Below, one piece after another: positions 29,055 to 38,622 of a DNA stretch of 64,000 nucleotides. Source of the DNA: Planctomycetota bacterium (GTDB taxonomy: Bacteria > Planctomycetota > UBA1135 > UBA2386); the NCBI GenBank assembly GCA_965223545.1, contig OZ245006.1:1984001-2048000 (forward strand). Direction: 5' to 3'. The notes beneath the pieces are model-generated. The model searched no databases and was not told where the DNA came from. It saw only the letters and a list, made by a program, of their open reading frames with translations. Position 1 is the first letter of the stretch. The number at the start of each line of letters is the position of its first letter. The translations under genes and the position numbers were made by a program.

Positions 29055-29627
29055 GTGGCCCGCTCCGTCCTCGTGCTCGACAACCGCGACTCGTTCGTCT
29101 GGAACCTGGCGCAAGCCCTCGGCGGCTTGGGCTGTGAGGTCACGGTGCTGCGCAGCGATGCGGTCGACGTCGGCGCCATCCGCCGCTGCAAACCCGACGC
29201 CCTGGTGCTGTCACCGGGGCCCGGCCGGCCAGAGAGCGCCGGCGTGTGCATCACCGCCGTCCGCACGCTGTCGGCGGAGATGCCGATCCTCGGCGTCTGT
29301 CTCGGCCACCAGGCGATCGCCGCCGCCTTCGGCGCGCGCGTCGTGCGCTGCGCGCCGTGCCACGGCAAACCCTGGGCGATCGAGCACCGCGGCGCAGGCC
29401 TGTTTCGCGGCATGCCCAACCCGCTCGTCGCCTGCCGCTATCACTCGCTCAGCGTGGACGCGAAGAGCCTGCCCGCCGAGCTGGCCGAGGACGCGCAGAC
29501 GCCGGACGGCATCGTCATGGCGCTGCGCCACGTCGACCGGCCGACCTTCGGCGTGCAGTTCCACCCGGAGTCGTTCCGCACCGAGCACGGCACCGCACTG
29601 TTGCGCAACTTCGTGGAGTGCGCCTGA
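29055..29627 (+). CDS. Anthranilate/aminodeoxychorismate synthase component II (glutamine amidotransferase)
   Basis: LDNRDSF, SPGPGRP, ILGVCLGHQ, RYHSL and GVQFHPES motifs. Confidence 0.92.
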   Translation: MARSVLVLDNRDSFVWNLAQALGGLGCEVTVLRSDAVDVGAIRRCKPDALVLSPGPGRPESAGVCITAVRTLSAEMPILGVCLGHQAIAAAFGARVVRCAPCHGKPWAIEHRGAGLFRGMPNPLVACRYHSLSVDAKSLPAELAEDAQTPDGIVMALRHVDRPTFGVQFHPESFRTEHGTALLRNFVECA

Positions 29628-30517
29628 TGACCGCGGTCCCGGCGCTGCAGTTGCAGAACGTGCGCAAGTCGTTCCGCCGGCGCACAGCACTGCACTCCGT
29701 CGACCTTCAGCTCGAGCGCGGCGAGACCGTGGGCTTCGTCGGTCCCAACGGGGCGGGCAAGTCGACGTGTCTGCGCATTCTGACGGGGATGACGTTTCGC
29801 GATGGCGGTGACGCGCAAGTCTGCGGCCTCGACCCCGGCCGGCAAGGGGTCGAGGTGCGACGGCGCTGCGCCTACCTTCCGGGCGAGACCAGCCTCTACG
29901 ACGCGCTCACCGGCCGGCAACTCCTGGCCTTGGCACAGCACGGCTATCCGCAGCCGGACCCGGGCTTGGCCGAGTCGCTGACCGGTCGGTTCGGTTTGCC
30001 GCTCGACCACCCGACGCGCCAGCTGTCCGCCGGGATGAAGCAGCAATTGGCGCTCGCCGCCGTGCTCTCTACCGGTGCCGAGGTCTTCCTGTTGGACGAA
30101 CCCGACCGCAACCTCGACCCGACCGCGCGCGCCGTCTTGCGCGACGCGATCCGCAGCCTGCAAGAACGCGGCAGGACGATCCTCTTCAGCTCGCACCACC
30201 TCGCCGCCCTCGAGCTCAGCGCGCAGCGCACCGAGTTCTTGCTGGGCGGACGCGTGGTGCCCGCCGCCCGCGTCGAACGCGCGCGCACCGCGCTGCGCAA
30301 CAGTGTCCGCCTGCGCCTGCGGCGACCCGTCGAACTCCCCGACGGGGCGCGGATCACACCCGAGCCGGACGGCTCGCTGCGCGCGCGACCGGCGGACGCC
30401 GCGCTCGACTGGGTGCGGCGTTTGCCCGCCGACGCGGTCGAGACGCTCGAGGTCGGCGCGACCCGGCTCGAGGACCTCTACGCCGAGCTGCAGGCCGACC
30501 CGGAGAACCACCAGTGA
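29627..30517 (+). CDS. ABC transporter ATP-binding protein
   Basis: GPNGAGKST, LSAGMKQ, LLDEP and SSHH motifs. Confidence 0.92.
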   Translation: MTAVPALQLQNVRKSFRRRTALHSVDLQLERGETVGFVGPNGAGKSTCLRILTGMTFRDGGDAQVCGLDPGRQGVEVRRRCAYLPGETSLYDALTGRQLLALAQHGYPQPDPGLAESLTGRFGLPLDHPTRQLSAGMKQQLALAAVLSTGAEVFLLDEPDRNLDPTARAVLRDAIRSLQERGRTILFSSHHLAALELSAQRTEFLLGGRVVPAARVERARTALRNSVRLRLRRPVELPDGARITPEPDGSLRARPADAALDWVRRLPADAVETLEVGATRLEDLYAELQADPENHQ

Positions 30518-31305
30518 TTGCCTGGAAGACCTGGCGCGAGATCCGCTGGCTGGTCTTGCTCTACACGGCGTTGCTCGAGCTCGGCGTCGCCCTCGCCGTG
30601 CTGCTGTGGCCTTGGTTGCGCGACCAGTCGCCAGCCCTGGCGCGGCTGGCGCCGGCGCGCTTCATCCGCCGCTGGATCGACGGCATCACCGATCCCGACG
30701 CCGACGCCGCGTATCGCGCCTACATGGCCCTGCAGCTGTTCTTCAAGGGCGTCAACGTCGTCGGCCTCGCCTTCGCCGTGCTGTTCGGCGCCCTGCTGGT
30801 GGCGCGCGAACGCGAGAACCACACCCTCGAGTTCCTGCTGGCGCGGCCACTGCCGCGCAGCCGGATCCTGCTGAGCAAGCTGGCGGTGGTCGGCACGGCC
30901 CTGGTGCTGCCGATCGTCCTGACGTCCTGGAGCGCGATTCCGATCGGTTGGCTGATCGACGAGCGACTGCCGTTCGGTCCGCTCACGGTCGGCGCGCTCT
31001 ACAGCGCCCTGTTTTGCACCGCGTTCTTGGCGCTGGCGACCCTGTTGTCGGTGTACTCGCGCACCCAGCTGGGGGTGATCGCCACGGTCGGCGGCTTCGC
31101 CGTCCTGCAGGTCGGCCTCTACTTCGTCCAGCAGATCCGCCGCGCCAGTGTGTTCCGCCTGTCCGACTACGACATCTACGCCCCGGTGCTGGCCGGCAAC
31201 CTGTCGGCATGGCAGCTGCTTTCGGGTGCAGGCCTGTGCCTGCTGCTGTTCGCTGCCGTTTGCTTCTGGCTGGCGCTGCGCGGCTTTCGGAGGCTCGAGC
31301 CGTGA
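30514..31305 (+). CDS. ABC-2 type transporter permease
   Basis: Six TM segments and ARERENHTLEFLLARPLPRSRILLSKL. Confidence 0.88.
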   Translation: MIAWKTWREIRWLVLLYTALLELGVALAVLLWPWLRDQSPALARLAPARFIRRWIDGITDPDADAAYRAYMALQLFFKGVNVVGLAFAVLFGALLVARERENHTLEFLLARPLPRSRILLSKLAVVGTALVLPIVLTSWSAIPIGWLIDERLPFGPLTVGALYSALFCTAFLALATLLSVYSRTQLGVIATVGGFAVLQVGLYFVQQIRRASVFRLSDYDIYAPVLAGNLSAWQLLSGAGLCLLLFAAVCFWLALRGFRRLEP

Positions 31306-33008
31306 GCTGGCCGGTCTGGTTGCCGGTCTGGCTTCGCGTCGGCATCGCGCTGGCGCGCGAGCTCGTGCGGGCGATCGCGTTTCCGCTGCACCTGGTGCTC
31401 TACCTCCCGGCGCGCCAGCGCTGGCGCACGCGGGCACGCGCGGCGCTGGAGGCGGCGGCGCAGCCGACGCCGCCGCAGGACGGACCGCTGCTACCGCCAA
31501 TCAGCACGCACGGTCGCCGCCCCCGCCTGTTCGTCTCGGCCGGCGAGACCTCGGGCGAAGTGCACGCCGCCAACGTGGTGCGCGCGCTGCGCGCGCAGGG
31601 CGTCGACGCGGAGTGCCTGGCGTTCGGCGGCCCCTTGCTGGAGAGCGCCGGCGCGCACGTCCGAGTGCCGTTGAGCGCGCACTCGATCATCGGACTCGGC
31701 GGCGTGCTGCGCGCGCTGCCGTTCTTGGTCAAGGCAGTCGCCGATTTCGTCCGACTCCTGCGAGTCGAGCGCCCCGACCTGGTGCTGCTCGTCGACTATC
31801 CGGGCTTGCACTTGGTGCTCGGCCAGCTGGCCCGCGAACACCGCGTGCCCGTCGTGCACTACGTCGCGCCTCAGTACTGGGCGTGGGCGCCGTGGCGGAT
31901 GGCGCGCTACCGGCGTTGCGTCGACGCCACGCTGACCATCCTGCCGTTCGAGCCGGCGTTCTTCGAAGGCCGGGGATTGGCCGCGCGCTACGCCGGACAC
32001 CCTCTGCTCGACCACTACCGCCAGCACCCACCGGTCGCCGCGGAGCTGGCGGCGGTGTGCGCCCGGCCGACGGTGTGCTTGATGCCCGGCAGTCGCCGCG
32101 CCGAGATCGAGCAACACCTGGCCCCGTTCGTCGCGATCGCCCGCCGGCTGCATCGCGACGACCCCAACCTGCGCTTCGTCATCCCGCACGTCGACCCGCG
32201 CCGCGCGCGCCAGATCGAGCAGCGACTGGCCGGCCTGGATGCACCGTTCATCGAGCTGCGCGTCGGCGCGATCGGTGCGTGGTTGGCGGGCGCGCGCGCG
32301 GTCCTGGTCAAGTCGGGCACCGGATCGCTCGAGGCCTGCCTGCACGGCACCCCGAGCGTGGTGGTCTACAAGCTGAGCGGCCGCTCCTGGCAGTGGATGC
32401 ACCGCAACGCGCTGATCGTGCCGTGGGTCGCGGCCGCCAACTTGGTCGCCAACGCGCCGGTCGTACCCGAGCACGTGTTCTTCGACGACGACGGCTGGGC
32501 CGCGGTCGAGGAGTCGCTGCGCGCGCTGCTGCGCGACGGCGAGACCCGCGAGGCATGCGTGGCGGGCCTGGCGGCGGTCCGGCGACGCCTGGGCGGCGCC
32601 GGCGCCAGCGAGCGCGTCGCGCGCTGGTTGGCGGCGACGCTGGCCTCCCCCGCGGAACTCGCCGACTCGGAGCTCGAGCCCTACCGCGACCTGGCTCCCG
32701 AGGACGCCGACGCCGCACTGCGCACCGACCCCGAGCTCGCGGTACTGGACGTGCGCACACCGCCCGAGCACGCCCGGCACCGCCTGCCGGGCAGCCAGCT
32801 GATTCCGGTGCACGAGCTGCCACGCCGCCTCGACGAGCTCGATCCCGCACGACGCTACCTGGTCGTCTGCGAGCACGGAGTGCGCAGCGTCGCGGCCTGC
32901 GAGCTCCTCGTCGAGCACGGCTTCGCCGCGATCGCCAACCTCAACGGCGGCATGGCACACTGGCTCGCGCGCGGGCTGCCCGTCGAGCGTGGAACGACAG
33001 AGCATTAG
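31302..33008 (+). CDS. lpxB: Lipid-A-disaccharide synthase fused to a C-terminal rhodanese domain
   Basis: SAGETSGEVH, VDYPG, HYVAPQYWAW, ILPFE, GHPL, MPGSRRAE and KSGTGSLE motifs, then VLDVRTPPEH...VVCEHGVRS...NLNGGM in the same frame. Confidence 0.88.
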   Translation: MSWPVWLPVWLRVGIALARELVRAIAFPLHLVLYLPARQRWRTRARAALEAAAQPTPPQDGPLLPPISTHGRRPRLFVSAGETSGEVHAANVVRALRAQGVDAECLAFGGPLLESAGAHVRVPLSAHSIIGLGGVLRALPFLVKAVADFVRLLRVERPDLVLLVDYPGLHLVLGQLAREHRVPVVHYVAPQYWAWAPWRMARYRRCVDATLTILPFEPAFFEGRGLAARYAGHPLLDHYRQHPPVAAELAAVCARPTVCLMPGSRRAEIEQHLAPFVAIARRLHRDDPNLRFVIPHVDPRRARQIEQRLAGLDAPFIELRVGAIGAWLAGARAVLVKSGTGSLEACLHGTPSVVVYKLSGRSWQWMHRNALIVPWVAAANLVANAPVVPEHVFFDDDGWAAVEESLRALLRDGETREACVAGLAAVRRRLGGAGASERVARWLAATLASPAELADSELEPYRDLAPEDADAALRTDPELAVLDVRTPPEHARHRLPGSQLIPVHELPRRLDELDPARRYLVVCEHGVRSVAACELLVEHGFAAIANLNGGMAHWLARGLPVERGTTEH

Positions 33009-33399
33009 GCGGAGCGAGCCGGCGAAGCGCCAACTGATCATTGCTGAATCCCCTGACACCAACGCGTAAACGTTCGGTGAGGATCCGCGTGTAAGCGGTG
33101 GGGCCGGGGGGCCAAAACCGAGCGTGCAGGACTTCCTTGGTCTGCCCCGCTGGAGCGCTCAAGCCTGACCGTGATCCGCAAGGGGTTGCCGATGGAGGAT
33201 GGAGGTACACGAGGAAGTGTCTGCCTTCGTCACCAGATCGCGAAGTGCAAAGGAGCAGCGAAGCGGGCAGCGAGGGAGGGGTCGGTTTGTAGTCACCAGT
33301 CACCAGCTACCTCTACGCAAACAACCGAGGACGACGGGTGTCCGCGCGTCAGACGGGCAACGACTGCTGCGTCCGTTCCAACGCCTGTATTCTGTCCCT

Positions 33400-33570
33400 C
33401 GGGGCCGGCAATTCTGACTCTTCTTCTCGAAGGGTCCTTGCTCTGCTTGAACGCTTGAACGCCTTGACCTTGTGCGGAATAAGCCCATTCTGCTTCCACA
33501 CTCGATTCAATATCGACTGCGTGATCCCTGAATTCTCCGCGAGAGATTGCACTTCTGCATCACACCACTG
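33400..33570 (-). pseudogene. Degenerate IS630-family transposase fragment
   Basis: VQSLAENSGITQSILNRVWKQNGLIPHKVKAFK, then after an 8-nt duplication (GTTCAAGC) QSKDP and FEKK in shifted frames. Resembles the IS630 HTH region RIWxxHGLKPHRVKTFKLSNDPxFEEK. Confidence 0.6.
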
Positions 33571-34442
33571 AACCAATCGTGCAAGGCATCGCATAATGCG
33601 CCATCGACCTTAGCGTCGAACACGGCAAACATCGGCGACGAGTTGACTTCGAGAAACATCAAGTCACCTGTGTCAGCGCAGGTCTTGAAGTCCGCTGCCG
33701 CGAAGTCTAGACCAACGCCGTCGCATAGAGTGAATAACTGCGTCGGCAGCGATGGCGGCAACACGTCCAGCTTCACTGGAACGACCTCGCATGCGCCCGT
33801 TCGCCGGTAGTCGAGTTCGCTCGAATCCATCCGAAATCCGAAGCACCGACTGCCAATCCGGTAGACGCGGTACTCCGGTGCAACCAGCCGTGGCTGCACG
33901 ATCGCTGGCGCAGCAGCAACGCCGCCCCTCTCTTCCGCCGCAGCGATCGCTGCATCCGCGGTCTCGCAGAATCCACCACCGTCAACAGGCTTCACCACGA
34001 GCCCCAACGCACCGGCCACACTCGCGATCCGGTCTACCTCATTCGAGACCAGAGTGAACGGAACACTGAATCCGACCTCGCGAGCAAGCGCCAACATCTG
34101 GGGCTTGTTAGTGACTCGGACTCCCGCGACTCGGTTGGGCATCGCCACATCCGTGTGTGCCATCAGCCATCCCTGGATCGTCGTGTACCAGGCGTGAGCG
34201 CGTCGCGCGACGACGGGCCGCGGATCGTCGAGCTCAGAAAACACGTCGTAGCGGACGAACCCAGCCGACGGCCGAACATGGCGCCCCTCGACAATCAGCC
34301 GATCCTCGACGACGTCCCAGGACAAGCGCGGGGCACGACCCGGACCTACCCAGAGTTCGAGTGTCTCGACGCCGCGCGTTCTGGCGCAAGCGGCAAGCCG
34401 CCTGAGATTCGGGTCGTCAGGGCCACCGGCGATCAGAAACAC
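33507..34442 (-). CDS. ATP-grasp ligase, RimK/MvdD/PsnB-like (putative graspetide synthetase)
   Basis: NKPQML...GFSVPFTLVSN, VVKPVDGG, PAIVQPRL, EYRVY, DYR, GLDFAAADF and FLEVNSSPMF motifs. It starts 3 nt after the tyrosinase stop. Confidence 0.85.
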   Translation of the reverse strand: MFLIAGGPDDPNLRRLAACARTRGVETLELWVGPGRAPRLSWDVVEDRLIVEGRHVRPSAGFVRYDVFSELDDPRPVVARRAHAWYTTIQGWLMAHTDVAMPNRVAGVRVTNKPQMLALAREVGFSVPFTLVSNEVDRIASVAGALGLVVKPVDGGGFCETADAAIAAAEERGGVAAAPAIVQPRLVAPEYRVYRIGSRCFGFRMDSSELDYRRTGACEVVPVKLDVLPPSLPTQLFTLCDGVGLDFAAADFKTCADTGDLMFLEVNSSPMFAVFDAKVDGALCDALHDWFSGVMQKCNLSRRIQGSRSRY

Positions 34443-34445
34443 CTA

Positions 34446-35624
34446 TCAGAACCCACCGAAAGGGCTCCGCGGATCGCCTCCGCGGAATGGCTCTGGATCG
34501 TCGATGCGCGGGTCGGTCGGGCCCTCGCCAATGAACCTCGTCGGCGAGCCTTCCTCGCCCAAACGCAGCGTTGTCGGACCGCCTTCCTCCCCGACACGAA
34601 GCGTTGTGAGGTCCTCTCCTTGGGGTAGGGTCGGCACGGCCTCTTCGCCAATCCACTGGGATATCGGCTCCTCCCAGCGGGGAAAGGTTGGACGAGCCGC
34701 GCGCTCGGGGCACGGGCAGCCCTCTTCGTCATCGTAACAGTAACCTACATCCCGGTGATCGAGGACCATTTCAGGTGTAACAACATCCGTGACGGGGTAG
34801 CTCGGCACCAACGCGGCCATACCGGCGGCGGTTGTCTCCGATGCGCTCGCATCCCACGGCCACATAGGGTCAGTCAGACGATGTCCCTGCCCCCCCGTGT
34901 TTAGGGGGTTGTAGTTTGCGGCACCTGGATGATCTCTTTGCCACTTGGCCCAGATCCGATCGACCTGGGCATGGTGCAACCAGAAGATCGGATCGTTGGG
35001 CGAAGTCATCTGGCTCATGTCACGCCCAAGCCGAACGTGAACAATCCCGTGTGGCGGCCATTCGAGTGCGGGCCGGAAAAGGTTGAAAGTTGGCAGCGCC
35101 AAGACAGCCGCAACCGAAGCTGCCGTTGGCCACGGTGCGCCCCGGTTGAGGGCAGTGTTCCGCTGCAACCCGTCGCCGAATCTCTGCAGTTCCGCGCGAA
35201 TCGGAAAGCCCAGCGGATTGAGCGCGTTGGGGTCGCGTGCGAAGTAGCCGGAGTCGACTGTGAACGTCCCGGCCGCGCCGAGCGGGCCGAGCCGATCGTC
35301 GGCGAACAGACCAATCTCGTCGTCGTCGTCGCCTAGGCCCCAATTCCAGTAAGGGAGCGTCACGCGGGCATCGACCGACTGAAGGGCCTGCTCGAACCGC
35401 TTCAAGTACTCGCGGTGCCACGGCAAGAACGCGGGGCCGCCGTGGGCACCGTCCGTGGTCTGCGCGCCATTTAGCTGAGTAACTCCAACGTGAAGGGCTA
35501 CGAACATGTCGTACACACTGATCCCCGATCCTGGCGGAAACGTGTGCTTGAGTGTGACAACCGCCGTGAGGAACCTGTGCCACTCCTCAGCGGAGAGACT
35601 GCTGGCGTTCTTGCGCACGTTCAT
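34446..35624 (-). CDS. Tyrosinase (MelC2-like) with a C-terminal graspetide-like repeat tail
   Basis: VRKNASSLS start, CuA ligands in ALH and AHGGPAFLPWHREYL, LPYWNW, CuB ligands in PHGIVH and NDPIFWLHHAQVDRIW. Strong SD GAGGAGG. The tail has seven (T/S)xxxx(E/D) units. Confidence 0.92.
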   Translation of the reverse strand: MNVRKNASSLSAEEWHRFLTAVVTLKHTFPPGSGISVYDMFVALHVGVTQLNGAQTTDGAHGGPAFLPWHREYLKRFEQALQSVDARVTLPYWNWGLGDDDDEIGLFADDRLGPLGAAGTFTVDSGYFARDPNALNPLGFPIRAELQRFGDGLQRNTALNRGAPWPTAASVAAVLALPTFNLFRPALEWPPHGIVHVRLGRDMSQMTSPNDPIFWLHHAQVDRIWAKWQRDHPGAANYNPLNTGGQGHRLTDPMWPWDASASETTAAGMAALVPSYPVTDVVTPEMVLDHRDVGYCYDDEEGCPCPERAARPTFPRWEEPISQWIGEEAVPTLPQGEDLTTLRVGEEGGPTTLRLGEEGSPTRFIGEGPTDPRIDDPEPFRGGDPRSPFGGF

Positions 35625-35665
35625 CTCGGTTTCCTCCTCTCTTGATCGCTGCGTGTGATCGCCTA

Positions 35666-35962
35666 TCACGCGCGACCGTCTACGATCGCGCGCGCGAGTT
35701 CATTGGCCGAACCGTACCTCTCGTATGGCTTTTCGGTCGAATTATACTGGCCAGTGTCGGCATCGCGCGCGAACAAGATGGGCTCGTCATCTATCTTGAC
35801 TTGTTCGTCGGCCCCATCTAGCTGCACGACAATACGACAATCTTTGTAGACTGTGTCCGATACGATCGACGGCTTCCCGGCCTTTTTGCTCTTCCCGGGC
35901 TTCTTGCTCTTCCCGGGCTTCTTGCTCTTCCCGGGCTTCTTGCTCTTCGATTTGTTGCTCAT
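35666..35962 (-). CDS. Tyrosinase cofactor/caddie (MelC1-like) with Lys-rich N-terminal repeat
   Basis: YKDCRI...VKIDDEPI...DADTGQYNS...PYERYGSANELARAIVD resembles the MelC1 pattern YxGRRI...IDGxEL...NADGSWIS...HY...AARAAVD. It lies immediately upstream of the tyrosinase. Confidence 0.7.
   Translation of the reverse strand: MSNKSKSKKPGKSKKPGKSKKPGKSKKAGKPSIVSDTVYKDCRIVVQLDGADEQVKIDDEPILFARDADTGQYNSTEKPYERYGSANELARAIVDGRA
35886..35948. repeat. 18-bp tandem repeat x3.5 (encodes KSKKPG)
   Basis: TTGCTCTTCCCGGGCTTC three times exactly, plus a partial copy. Confidence 0.9.
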
Positions 35963-36423
35963 CACCCTTCTCTACTGTTGTCCCATCGAAAGATGAGCGC
36001 CATACCACTGCCGGACGGTAACTTTAAGCGTAACCAAAGTGGCGCCCCCGCGTCACGGAATATTTCCAACAGCTACCGCGAGAGCCAATCGAGGTAGCTT
36101 GGGCTTCTGTCTAGGTCCAGTGGCGCGTCGTCACCACCTCCACAACGCCTTACGTTCGTGCAAGTTCGTCGCAATACTGTTTGGCTGACGTGAGCTGGTT
36201 CTTCTGCGCACCGGAGTGCCTGCGTATTCGAGCTGGCGATTACCGTGCCGCCACGGCGTTTCGGGTGCCAAGGCCAAGCGTTCGGCCTCTTTCTCCTTGA
36301 GCGCTTAGTAGAGGGTCTTCTCCCCCGTCGGCATATTCAGCACACAAGACAACAGTGCAGGTCGGCATGCCGGCCTGGGTAACGGTTCACAGCGATGTCG
36401 GATGGGCCCGGCCGCGCCGCGCA

Positions 36424-38622
36424 TCAGCGAATCTCGAGCATCGCCACCGGCGAGGTCTCCTCGACCTCGGGAGAAGTCGTCTCGAGCGTGCACATCGCCG
36501 CGTACAGCTGCAGCCCGGACAAGCCGGGGTCATTGGGAATCGGCAACACGGTCTGCGCCTCGCCGTTGCCGTCCAACACCCCTTGGAACCCGGGCAGCTG
36601 GCCGGCCAACACCGCCGCGGTCAGCACATCGACCCCCATCGGCAGCACCCGCCCCGGCGCGACGCGCACGGTCTCCGGATAGCCGACCGTCGACAGCAAC
36701 GCGAAGAACGGCGCCCGCGGGTGGTAGCGGTCGGAGAACTCGACGCCGACGGTCGCACCGAGGCTGGCCGGCCCGCGAAACGACACGAGGTCGGTGGCGG
36801 TGTCCATCGCCGTCGTCCAAGCGATCGCCAACGGCTCTTGGTCGCCATCGAAGCGGTGCACGTGCAGCACGACGGTGTAGGTGCCACTCACCGGCGGACG
36901 AAACATCGCGATCTCGAACGGGTTGAACGGCGATGCCGACGCCGCCACCACGTTGCCGGCCGGATCCTCGATCGTCATGTCGAGGTCCATCTCGAGCACG
37001 TCGGTGCTGTACGAAGAGTCCGCCTGCGAGAACCACAACGCGACGACGCGGGCGGTGTCGTGGCGATCGAGGTAGAGGGTGTGCCGATACACACCGGCAG
37101 TAAACGAGCTCGGCGTCAGCGTCGCGGAGTGGTACTGGCCGTCCTCGACCGCGCTCTGCGCCGCCGCCGCGTCGACGCCGCCGGCGCCGTCGAAGTCGCT
37201 GAGTGGCTTGCCGCCGTGGATGTTGTTCCACGCGCCCGCCATCAACATCGCCTTGACCACTTCCGGCTTGGCGAGCAGGGCGTTGTCCGTCGACGCCAAC
37301 AAGGCGGCGGTGCCACACACCACCGGCGAAGCGAACGACGTGCCCGAGCCGGCGTTGCTGGTGATCCACGGGCTGCGGTTGGTCGTGGTGCTGATGCCGG
37401 TGCCATGCGCAGCGAGCTCGGGCTTCTCGTGATTGCTGGGCTGCGGGTTGCGCGTGCTCGAGCCGGTGTTCATCCGGTCGTCGTCCCAGTCGTGCGTGTT
37501 GCGCTCGTCGGCGTTGCCGGTGGCCGTTGTGTTGAAGCCGTTGCCCGGCGTCGTGGTCGGCTGGTTGTTGCCCTGGTTGCCGCAGGACTTGAACATCATC
37601 ACGCCGAAGTTGCGGATGATGTAGTCGAAATAGCGGTCGAGGAACACGATGCTGCCGCGGTTGCCGTTCCACCACGAGCAGTTGCCGAACGAGATGCCGT
37701 TCTGCATGCCAAACGCCCAAGCAGCCGGCGTCGCGACGTCGTCGTAGCCGGGCTGCACGAACAGCCGGTCGATGCCCGGCGCGGCGCCGGTCTGCTGCGG
37801 GTGCTTGGAGCAGACGATGCCGCTGACAGCCGCCGCGTGCGAGTCGTCGGCGGCGTTGTTGCCACGCGTCACCGGCGGCAGGTAGGGATTGGCGGTGGTG
37901 ACGTTGCCGACGTCGTTGACCAAGACGCGCACTCCCTGGCCGCGAATTCCCTTGAGATGTACGAAGTCGGTGCGCGCCGTCGGCGAGGCCCATTCGTTGA
38001 TCGGCGCCGGACACACCTCGGGCGCGGCGGTGGGAAAGCAGTAGTAGGCCTGGTCGACCTCGGCGCGCGCCGCCCACCCCGGCACCTGGTCGGACGCCAT
38101 CGTCGCGCAGACGAACGGCACGAAAGGGTCCACGTAGCGCACGGCAAAACCCGCCCGACCGAGAGCGGCAGCAAACGGACCCGTGACCGTCGCCGCCAGC
38201 CGCTGGGCCTCGTCCAACGCCGTGCGCCGCGCGTCTGCCGCCGCTTGGCCCGCGTCGATGGCCCGATCCAGCGTAGCCCGCAAGTCCGGGTGCCCCGCGG
38301 GCCGGTGCAGCCAGAACACGACGTCGAGGGCGGCGGCGACCGGCAGCTGCGATCGCAGCGCGTGCCACATCTTGCCGTTCTGCACATCGCGGGTGCTCGC
38401 TTCCCGCCGCAACAGCGCATCGGCGTCGATCGGCGCGCCGGTCCGCGCGTCGGTCGTCCGCCGCCGAATCCTCCGGCTGTCGGGATCGAGCCACCGCTGC
38501 TCGCGCACGGTGACACCGAGCGTGGGGAGCACTCGGTGCTCGTCGGCCAACACGCCTGGCGGCTCGCCTTGAACCAGGAGAAGGAGAAGCGAGAGAGCGG
38601 GCACGACGACCTCCTTGGGCAT
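36424..38622 (-). CDS. Secreted S8 (subtilisin-like) serine peptidase
   Basis: Catalytic triad in VNDVG, DSHAAAVSG and GSGTSFASP, oxyanion motif SCGNQG, signal peptide, and a PPC-like plus C-terminal domain. Confidence 0.88.
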   Translation of the reverse strand: MPKEVVVPALSLLLLLVQGEPPGVLADEHRVLPTLGVTVREQRWLDPDSRRIRRRTTDARTGAPIDADALLRREASTRDVQNGKMWHALRSQLPVAAALDVVFWLHRPAGHPDLRATLDRAIDAGQAAADARRTALDEAQRLAATVTGPFAAALGRAGFAVRYVDPFVPFVCATMASDQVPGWAARAEVDQAYYCFPTAAPEVCPAPINEWASPTARTDFVHLKGIRGQGVRVLVNDVGNVTTANPYLPPVTRGNNAADDSHAAAVSGIVCSKHPQQTGAAPGIDRLFVQPGYDDVATPAAWAFGMQNGISFGNCSWWNGNRGSIVFLDRYFDYIIRNFGVMMFKSCGNQGNNQPTTTPGNGFNTTATGNADERNTHDWDDDRMNTGSSTRNPQPSNHEKPELAAHGTGISTTTNRSPWITSNAGSGTSFASPVVCGTAALLASTDNALLAKPEVVKAMLMAGAWNNIHGGKPLSDFDGAGGVDAAAAQSAVEDGQYHSATLTPSSFTAGVYRHTLYLDRHDTARVVALWFSQADSSYSTDVLEMDLDMTIEDPAGNVVAASASPFNPFEIAMFRPPVSGTYTVVLHVHRFDGDQEPLAIAWTTAMDTATDLVSFRGPASLGATVGVEFSDRYHPRAPFFALLSTVGYPETVRVAPGRVLPMGVDVLTAAVLAGQLPGFQGVLDGNGEAQTVLPIPNDPGLSGLQLYAAMCTLETTSPEVEETSPVAMLEIR

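Follow-up and report, generated by a model that had tools for sequence, protein, structure and literature searches.

A tyrosinase tail with plesiocin-like core repeats and a candidate C-terminal follower for the adjacent ATP-grasp ligase

Comparative analysis of the window (the whole stretch of 64,000 nucleotides) suggests that a tyrosinase encoded in it carries a plesiocin-type graspetide substrate as its C-terminal tail, and that the PFGGF sequence closing this tail is a natural follower docking on the product of the adjacent ligase gene. We assign this reading, which draws on sequence comparison and structure modelling, a probability of about 0.8. On the same reading, the ligase belongs to a follower-directed sister clade of the plesiocin ligases, with its substrate tail fused here to a tyrosinase. 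A wider proposal appears to us evenly balanced: that a ligase clade present in at least five phyla reads PFGx[FY]-COOH across its dimer interface and cyclises repeats on intact proteins, that these tails are carried lifelong and probably inhibit proteases, and that the motif forms a natural, leader-free portable tag, which would be orthogonal to the plesiocin leader within one cell. The features of the locus are as follows.

33507..34442, minus strand: PsnB-like ATP-grasp ligase, 311 aa, assigned to the follower clade (sequence and fold match to PsnB)
34446..34466, minus strand: terminal (S)PFGGF and stop, predicted to serve as the follower for recognition (PFGx[FY]-COOH in the family consensus)
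34467..34496, minus strand: 10-residue spacer (aa 377-386) separating the terminal motif from the last unit
34497..34691, minus strand: graspetide core array, aa 312-376, resembling the plesiocin core TTxxxxEE (bioRxiv 2021.03.09.434688)
34692..35624, minus strand: tyrosinase domain, the N-terminal passenger, aa 1-311 (PF00264, E 3.6e-38)
35666..35965, minus strand: MelC1-like tyrosinase caddie, 99 aa, with Lys-rich N-terminal repeats (NF047833 and position)

The tail occupies the last 81 codons and the stop of a 392-residue open reading frame on the minus strand (34446-35624, ATG at 35624), the first 305 to 311 residues of which form the tyrosinase. This part is called a tyrosinase by the Pfam criterion, scores 163.9 bits against the MelC2 model NF047834 (cut-off 450), and contains all six type-3 copper histidines (H45, H61, H70, H192, H196 and H218), which we take to be the copper ligand positions. 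The gene directly upstream matches the caddie model NF047833 with E 0.016 and 15.3 bits, far under the cut-off of 120. The Streptomyces MelC1/MelC2 operon shares this order of a caddie gene followed by a dicopper tyrosinase, whereas both proteins of the window stay under the NCBIfam cut-offs and the tyrosinase bears a graspetide tail. Tandem repeats of 18 nucleotides at 35873-35962 encode KSKKPG units at the caddie N-terminus. Inspection of the caddie by eye revealed no twin-arginine signal, so the tyrosinase may remain cytoplasmic.

The ligase gene begins 3 nucleotides past the precursor stop. The G+C content of the bin 34001-36000 is 62%, compared with 65-76% in the other 31 bins; ligase and tail are single-copy in their own genome; and among 60 related genomes searched the ligase has matches in only two, both weak (60-75 bits versus 389). 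From these three features we infer that the three-gene cassette was horizontally acquired. A probable transposase remnant (33349-33594, minus strand) overlaps the 3' end of the ligase gene and matches two longer copies elsewhere in the genome by tblastn (E 6e-4). It has no Pfam or NCBIfam match; it is probably of the IS630 type, and the last 15-20 ligase residues may derive from it. On the same strand, about 460 nucleotides upstream of the cassette, lies a subtilase (36424-38622, PF00082, E 4.8e-18) that is not among the recurring neighbours at related loci. The nearest ABC pair (29246-31305, opposite strand) is of the ABC-2 type, with no C39 peptidase match. No ligase relatives were confirmed in viral contigs. 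Neither the ligase nor the pure precursors have a Pfam model, and no NCBIfam model matches those precursors that were tried.

The sequence-only reading described the tail as seven diversified octamers followed by a terminal SPFGGF. Translation of the minus-strand frame gives the following units.

aa 312-319 (34691-34668), minus strand: PTFPRWEE, marginal unit
aa 321-328, minus strand: ISQWIGEE, degenerate unit
aa 331-338, minus strand: PTLPQGED, degenerate unit
aa 340-347, minus strand: TTLRVGEE, canonical TTxxxGEE
aa 351-358, minus strand: TTLRLGEE, canonical TTxxxGEE
aa 361-368, minus strand: PTRFIGEG, degenerate unit
aa 369-376 (34520-34497), minus strand: PTDPRIDD, variant unit
aa 387-392 (34466-34449), minus strand: SPFGGF, followed by the stop at 34448-34446

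All seven octamers are present where that reading had placed them; matrix scores make five of them clear cores and leave two uncertain. The other details hold as described: Thr or Ser at position 2 and Glu or Asp at position 7 in all seven octamers, the full TT..EE pattern in only two, the SPFGGF end, and no LFIEDL or PFFARFL ahead of the octamers. The spacing exceeds expectation in 20,000 shuffles of the 81-residue tail: [TS]x4[ED] occurs 7 times against a mean of 1.9 (the fraction of shuffles reaching 7 is 5e-5), [TS]x3GE 5 times against 0.24, and TTx3GEE twice against 0.002, with no shuffle reaching the observed number in the last two cases. Against a matrix built from 1,045 family cores and anchored on G-E, the canonical units TTLRVGEE and TTLRLGEE score 27.2 and 26.8. 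The three degenerate units, in which T/S2-G6-E7 is kept, score 7.5, 6.8 and 6.7, and PTFPRWEE and PTDPRIDD score 0.7 and -15.4, the anchoring penalising both by construction. PTDPRIDDP nevertheless recurs exactly in one homologue (P0087) and as ITNPRVDDP at another locus (L141). Of the family cores, 87% are TT..EE, and the window tail with two of seven is far more divergent than this norm. Tails just as varied, closing with the motif or something close to it, are found on four further tyrosinases of the window protein's subtype.

Two further ideas about the tail were considered and dismissed. An assembly frameshift as the source of the fusion is ruled out because short-read contigs from a second sample match 33000-36400 letter for letter (as four pieces, with one junction between two of them inside the tail, at 34659) and because the same tyrosinase-tail fusion is present in P0086-P0088 and L117. 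Modification of the tail by its own tyrosinase was rejected: there is no Tyr beyond residue 297, and the tail also occurs without a tyrosinase.

The terminal motif turned out to be conserved among homologous tails, so that this condition for refuting a follower did not hold. To collect such tails, an alignment of 59 ligase sequences was used to fetch loci, namely the top 80 out of 180 from genomes and the top 80 out of 215 from metagenomes; they come from Acidobacteriota, Gemmatimonadota, Cyanobacteriota, Myxococcota and Pseudomonadota. Precursors were defined without regard to the terminal motif, as closed frames with at least two [TS]xxxGE[EDQ]; 127 of the 160 loci yielded 134 precursors, 125 of them distinct. 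PFGx[FY]-stop ends 104 of these 125, and a relaxed pattern fits 116. None of the 125 has the motif internally, and none contains LFIEDL or PFFARFL. Among 13,936 coreless control frames only seven end in PFGx[FY], and all seven look like degenerate precursors near a ligase. Eight loci have 2-5 precursors, each bearing its own motif, some of them downstream of the ligase; the distance from the last core to the motif Pro varies from 2 to 34 residues. A role of the motif as DNA, such as a ribosome site for the ligase, was rejected. Its Pro, Gly and Phe are encoded by all synonymous codons, all three stops are used, and precursor and ligase lie 0-1533 nucleotides apart, so selection acts on the protein. 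The follower assignment is thus supported by conservation, by the exclusion of LFIEDL, and by the complex model and pocket co-variation described below, with one amendment: the consensus is PFGx[FY], not SPFGGF or PFG[GA]F.

Nine of the 125 distinct precursors are exceptions even to the relaxed pattern. Among them are a probable frameshift (L053), an end lengthened by four residues (L117) and an extra copy (L151). Three others, from Alphaproteobacteria, end in WGA, WSA and WAA, one ends in PYDF, and two are haloperoxidase-like fusions that lack the motif. Three haloperoxidase-like proteins of about 750 residues with cores and without PFGx[FY] were seen altogether (L012:2621-4831, L014:2527-4851 and L094:2562-4832), one of them (L012) with a weak PAP2 match. 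In Acetobacteraceae, core tails of RTX-repeat proteins and of a short peptide (L029:2294-4951, L070:1561-2769 and L020:4682-4951) end in FWSA, FWAA and PWGA.

Many precursors also seem to have no room for a leader. An ATG preceded by a ribosome-site-like word lies within six residues of the first core in 20 of the 88 precursors with such a word upstream. Removal of five that are internal Met codons of longer proteins (L027, L028, L076, L108 and L111) leaves 15 supported starts located 2-5 residues ahead of the first core, mostly in Gemmatimonadota. Comparably short starts appear in the table of Carter 2026 (PMC13097080).

The ligases divide in the same way as their precursors. Across 73 genomes from the family that includes one genome (G061), the ligases fell into two score classes. 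Ligases at 95-120 bits, one of which (L190) bears the PsnB sequence motif, adjoin precursors with the same TTLAxGEE cores as the follower type, an LFIEDL..GG leader and no PFGx[FY]. Of the 171 loci with a ligase of at least 200 bits, a set that includes the window's own locus and three duplicates, 149 have a follower-type precursor, 8 have cores with another end, 14 have none, and no locus has a leader; several of the 22 loci lacking a follower-type frame are cut at contig ends. The 24 loci at 80-130 bits comprise 17 with the LFIEDL leader, one with a cut precursor and six with none, and include no follower. Six further loci have no precursor, and at none of the 201 loci do leader and follower occur together. 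Both systems are nevertheless encoded in each of two genomes (G061 and G062). A FastTree phylogeny of 128 of the 189 distinct ligases splits follower-type (SH support 99, branch 0.83) from leader-type ligases (support 100, branch 1.36), and the window ligase itself has a long branch of 0.78. Retrieval of the follower set relied on a profile of that set itself. Few independent events stand behind the leader control, the pocket co-variation and the short starts, since they derive from one Myxococcota family, from two small subclades and mostly from Gemmatimonadota, respectively.

The best PDB sequence match of the window ligase is PsnB (7DRM, E 1.7e-14), and the top ten fold matches of its model (pLDDT 94) are all PsnB structures with TM about 0.7, RimK-type folds ranking after the graspetide ligases. 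It scores 73.9 bits against TIGR04187 (cut-off 350) and about 43 bits against TIGR04184/5. The catalytic residues R64, K151, R192 and D211-Y212-R213 correspond to PsnB R72, K172, R213 and D233-F234-R235; R72, K172, R213, D233 and R235 are kept in all 138 follower ligases, and F234 is replaced by Tyr. The leader-binding residues Y171, R181, R192, L196, F203 and R101, each kept in 16-17 of 17 leader ligases, give way to other residues in the follower clade. None of them is present in the window ligase, and R101, which in PsnB binds the second Glu of the core, aligns to a gap. R81 of the window ligase is Arg in all 138 follower ligases and Met in all 17 leader ligases.

We modelled the ligase dimer with tail residues 361-392 and with three controls. 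The complex scored 0.65 (runs 0.60, 0.65 and 0.66) and the best control 0.01; it thereby passed a mark that 116 of 157 solved complexes and 2 of 215 mismatched pairs attain, figures that apply here only roughly, and the pass may owe something to the PsnB-precursor complexes already solved. The runs share at least 65% of contacts and the partner pLDDT is at least 47; the peptide pLDDT is 48-50, so that its own fold is uncertain. Confident peptide contacts involve residues 26-32 (RSPFGGF) and 4, 6 and 7 of the modelled tail. In the model, P388 and F389 contact A180, A176, V150, P152, N134 and A165 of one subunit, which correspond to the leader pocket in PsnB, and G390-F392 contact V77, R80, R81 and A84 of the other subunit; V150/P152/A165/A176-A180 and R81 thus form the predicted follower pocket. 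Residues 67, 267 and 269-271 of the second subunit are also at the modelled interface and would meet G366-E367 of the degenerate unit PTRFIGEG. Position 180 is Ala, Ser or Gly in all 138 follower ligases, Leu or Phe in the three haloperoxidase-tail loci without the motif, and Thr, together with Arg84, in the three WGA/WSA/WAA loci, a co-variation resting on two small subclades. The substitution in the haloperoxidase-tail ligases suggests another recognition mode.

The following mechanism would be compatible with these data. Pro-Phe would enter the pocket of one subunit that in PsnB accommodates Phe15 of the leader, and Gly-x-Phe, probably together with its free carboxylate, would rest on Arg81 of the other; this predicted position of the carboxylate would account for the motif almost always being last. 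The follower would then activate the ligase as the leader does in PsnB. By analogy with PsnB chemistry, Glu7 would be phosphorylated by ATP and attacked by Thr/Ser2, closing an inner ester ring, and the outer Thr1-Glu8 ring would form only in the two TT..EE units. With T/S2-E7 rings in five to seven units, the tail would acquire about 7 esters, 9 at most. Recognition from the C-terminal side would leave the N-terminus free, and the module is indeed joined to several unrelated domains.

Parts of this evidence would also suit other explanations. The ligase might recognise the cores directly, the motif being an export, sorting, degradation or protease-recruiting signal for another partner. Terminal aromatic motifs do serve as sorting or degradation signals in other systems, core Glu residues raise PsnB affinity about six-fold, and the three haloperoxidase-like tails have cores without the motif. 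However, PsnB shows minimal activity without its leader, which argues against direct core recognition. A signal for another partner is opposed by the shift of ligase pocket residues where the motif shifts, by the placement of the motif on the ligase in the complex model, and by the neighbourhoods: on inspection by eye of the top 22 neighbour clusters, no peptidase or transporter family was seen to reach seven follower loci, in a clustering dominated by shadow frames and lineage synteny. We regard this explanation as quite unlikely. A further variant, in which the carboxylate of the last Phe/Tyr is itself ATP-activated for RimK-like extension or for ligation to a Thr or the N-terminus, would make the motif the reacting site; this would suit its nearly always terminal and never internal position, as well as the carboxylate activation typical of ATP-grasp enzymes and the rank of RimK-type folds next in the fold search. 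It is very improbable nevertheless, since the nearest structure is that of PsnB, whose core-activating residues are all retained, the least-error contacts bring the final residues to A177 and R81, at a distance from the active-site ExN residues 265-267, and 2-25 repeated TT..EE units are sensible only as reacting sites.

The family reading could also be right and the window copy decaying, a chance precursor-tyrosinase fusion with little or no modification. The low share of canonical units, the near-absence of the ligase from the related genomes, and its long branch with an IS630-like remnant over its 3' end all point in this direction. The ligase frame and catalytic residues are intact, however, the four tyrosinases of the same subtype have equally varied motif-ending tails, one of which (P0087) keeps PTDPRIDDP, and the donor-acceptor spacing is kept in all seven units, so that decay is unlikely, though it deserves more weight than the other explanations. 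Least credible is the possibility that the N-terminal passenger domain is the real leader, like the long folded leaders of other RiPP classes, and the motif incidental. Many precursors do have a conserved folded domain of 100-150 residues, dominated by the Ig-like type; yet the passengers (tyrosinase, PrcB_C, Ig-like) are mutually unrelated and missing from many precursors, and no three-residue word is common to more than 7 of 69 short N-termini.

Recognition through a natural follower remains our preferred reading. The passengers were surveyed in a catalogue of 256 proteins. It was built from profiles that included the motif and was used for cataloguing only; 143 entries have the strict motif, 6 the relaxed one and 107 end otherwise. 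The motif-bearing proteins with at least 85 residues ahead of the cores comprise 82 Ig-like, 10 PrcB_C-like and 9 tyrosinase proteins and two singletons, and many precursors have no passenger domain at all. The claim that the N-terminus is free for fusion to any passenger stands insofar as several unrelated domains, or none, precede the cores; the word any extrapolates from about five domain types. Tyrosinase passengers form two subtypes on different ligase branches. The closest tyrosinase homologues of the window protein bear either this tail (P0086-P0088) or a P-domain (P0084 and P0085), so the C-terminal module of these tyrosinases appears, from their sequences, to be exchangeable. The Myxococcota tyrosinase passengers of L017, L032, L138 and L175 have RRGPA where the window reads HGGPA; one copper His is apparently lost and they may be inactive scaffolds. 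The common Ig-like passenger is modelled as an Ig-like sandwich (pLDDT 84.6), with unnamed clusters as its only matches in the structure Atlas. As to a known protease-inhibitor fold, the best match in its fold search, to a Bacteroides NigD-like lipoprotein (Z 6.5, rmsd 2.9, 97 aligned), speaks neither for nor against one. One large family of neighbour proteins adjoins the ligase in L005, L016, L018, L090, L096, L109 and L112, the precursors of which often have TTxVVGEE-type cores.

Tentatively, the rings may stay on the passenger as protease-inhibiting or protease-resistant appendages, with the varied loops widening the range of proteases. Read in order, the third residues of the window units are F, Q, L, L, L, R and D; on the assumption that this position supplies P1, the series would suit an inhibitor array of broadened range. 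Plesiocin is an inhibitor of elastase and chymotrypsin; its Psn-LLLR variant inhibits trypsin too (PMC10125368).

Among known systems, the closest is plesiocin PsnA2/PsnB of Plesiocystis pacifica (group 2a; PDB 7DRM-7DRP; bioRxiv 10.1101/2021.03.09.434688), which shares the tandem TTxxxxEE cores, the ligase fold and catalytic residues, and the pocket predicted to hold the Phe of the recognition sequence. Unlike plesiocin, the window system has neither the LFIEDL leader nor a GG site before the cores, its motif is C-terminal, its cores are fused to a full enzyme, and no C39 exporter adjoins; the ligase, about 24% identical to PsnB, has the leader-pocket residues and R101 replaced and falls in a separate clade. 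Of the features of the graspetide class, the adjacent PsnB/MdnC-type ligase, the catalytic residues and the donor/acceptor spacing are present, and the N-terminal leader is absent from the window protein and the 125 family precursors. Because the leader, the pocket residues and the exporter are missing, the window system is, by sequence, plesiocin-like but not a member of group 2a. Microviridins (group 1; MdnB/MdnC) share ATP-grasp side-chain cyclisation and Pro-Phe in the recognition motif (PFFARFL). Their TxKxPSD-type core, two ligases and N-terminal leader are not found in the window system, and its matches to TIGR04184/5 are weak.

No natural graspetide follower was found in the literature searched. 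In the literature covered, graspetides are described as leader-directed, and relocation of a leader to the C-terminus is an engineering result of 2026 (PMC13003496). In that study, on fuscimiditide ThfA1/ThfB, the recognition tetrapeptide RPFG still works once moved to the C-terminus, directing the synthetase from that side with the N-terminus freed, and Johnson 2026 terms this RPFG-leader-derived follower unnatural (PMC13003496). It is an artificial rearrangement of a 67-residue leader in a system with Thr-Asp stems, whereas the arrangement in the window is natural, with a five-residue motif at the very C-terminus. The terminal motif fits loosely the general graspetide leader pattern Phhx(1,2)h (Makarova 2022, PMC8939145). 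Relatives, including those from Symploca SIO2E6, Longimicrobium and Moorena, are already listed, with the PFGx[FY] end visible, in group 2 of Carter 2026 (PMC13097080) and in Makarova cluster10071 (PMC8939145), the Moorena precursor under the latter. Carter 2026 contains at least 57 occurrences of five motif variants, and the ten rows among those listed all belong to group 2, where the relatives are pooled with LFIEDL-leader plesiocin types; the SIO2E6 precursor there is identical to the L048 precursor, and other relatives of the same clade are likewise listed as group 2 (PMC13097080). The word follower gave no match in the main texts of PMC13097080 and PMC8939145 or in the Carter supplement text searched, and a motif search among the entries listed in the supplements of these two papers revealed no tyrosinase fusion. 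Other reports concern a leader-type group 2 example (PMC11626197) and engineered protein cyclisation (PMC12291112).

If the reading is correct, a natural follower clade would mean that one enzyme fold evolved both polarities for the same core, and would explain how peptide-modification modules become attached to full-size proteins. It would also provide a C-terminal tag, five residues long and orthogonal to PsnB, with which peptides or protein tails could be cyclised while the N-terminus stays free. Genome-mining tools assuming short, leader-first precursors would mis-parse these genes. Cultured hosts of relatives exist (Moorena producens 3L, Okeania and Nitrosospira lacus).

Several minor observations concern other precursor types. 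Further TTxxxGEE-repeat proteins (P0132, P0135, P0198, P0210 and others) combine a W[KR]NFRRW end with an RRDFL head, or have a PFGRR end, and others have an MRHPFDG start or Nif11-like, WXG100, Calx-beta or LysM heads; judged by their sequences, such fixed-end or fixed-head families may mark more ligase subclades. Two precursors (L116:336-665 and L143:441-695) start with a leader of the double-glycine type and end in ALGx[FY], which may combine an export leader with a follower. Ahead of the PFG motif, the short precursors of L034, L072, L121, L148, L150, L154, L158, L159 and L160 contain KTLACGEE and another Cys unit; they are possible disulfide plus ester hybrids. At L179 and L180, which encode basal follower-clade ligases, the upstream frames contain KTMAIPEE units and end in VFGEG or PFGDK.
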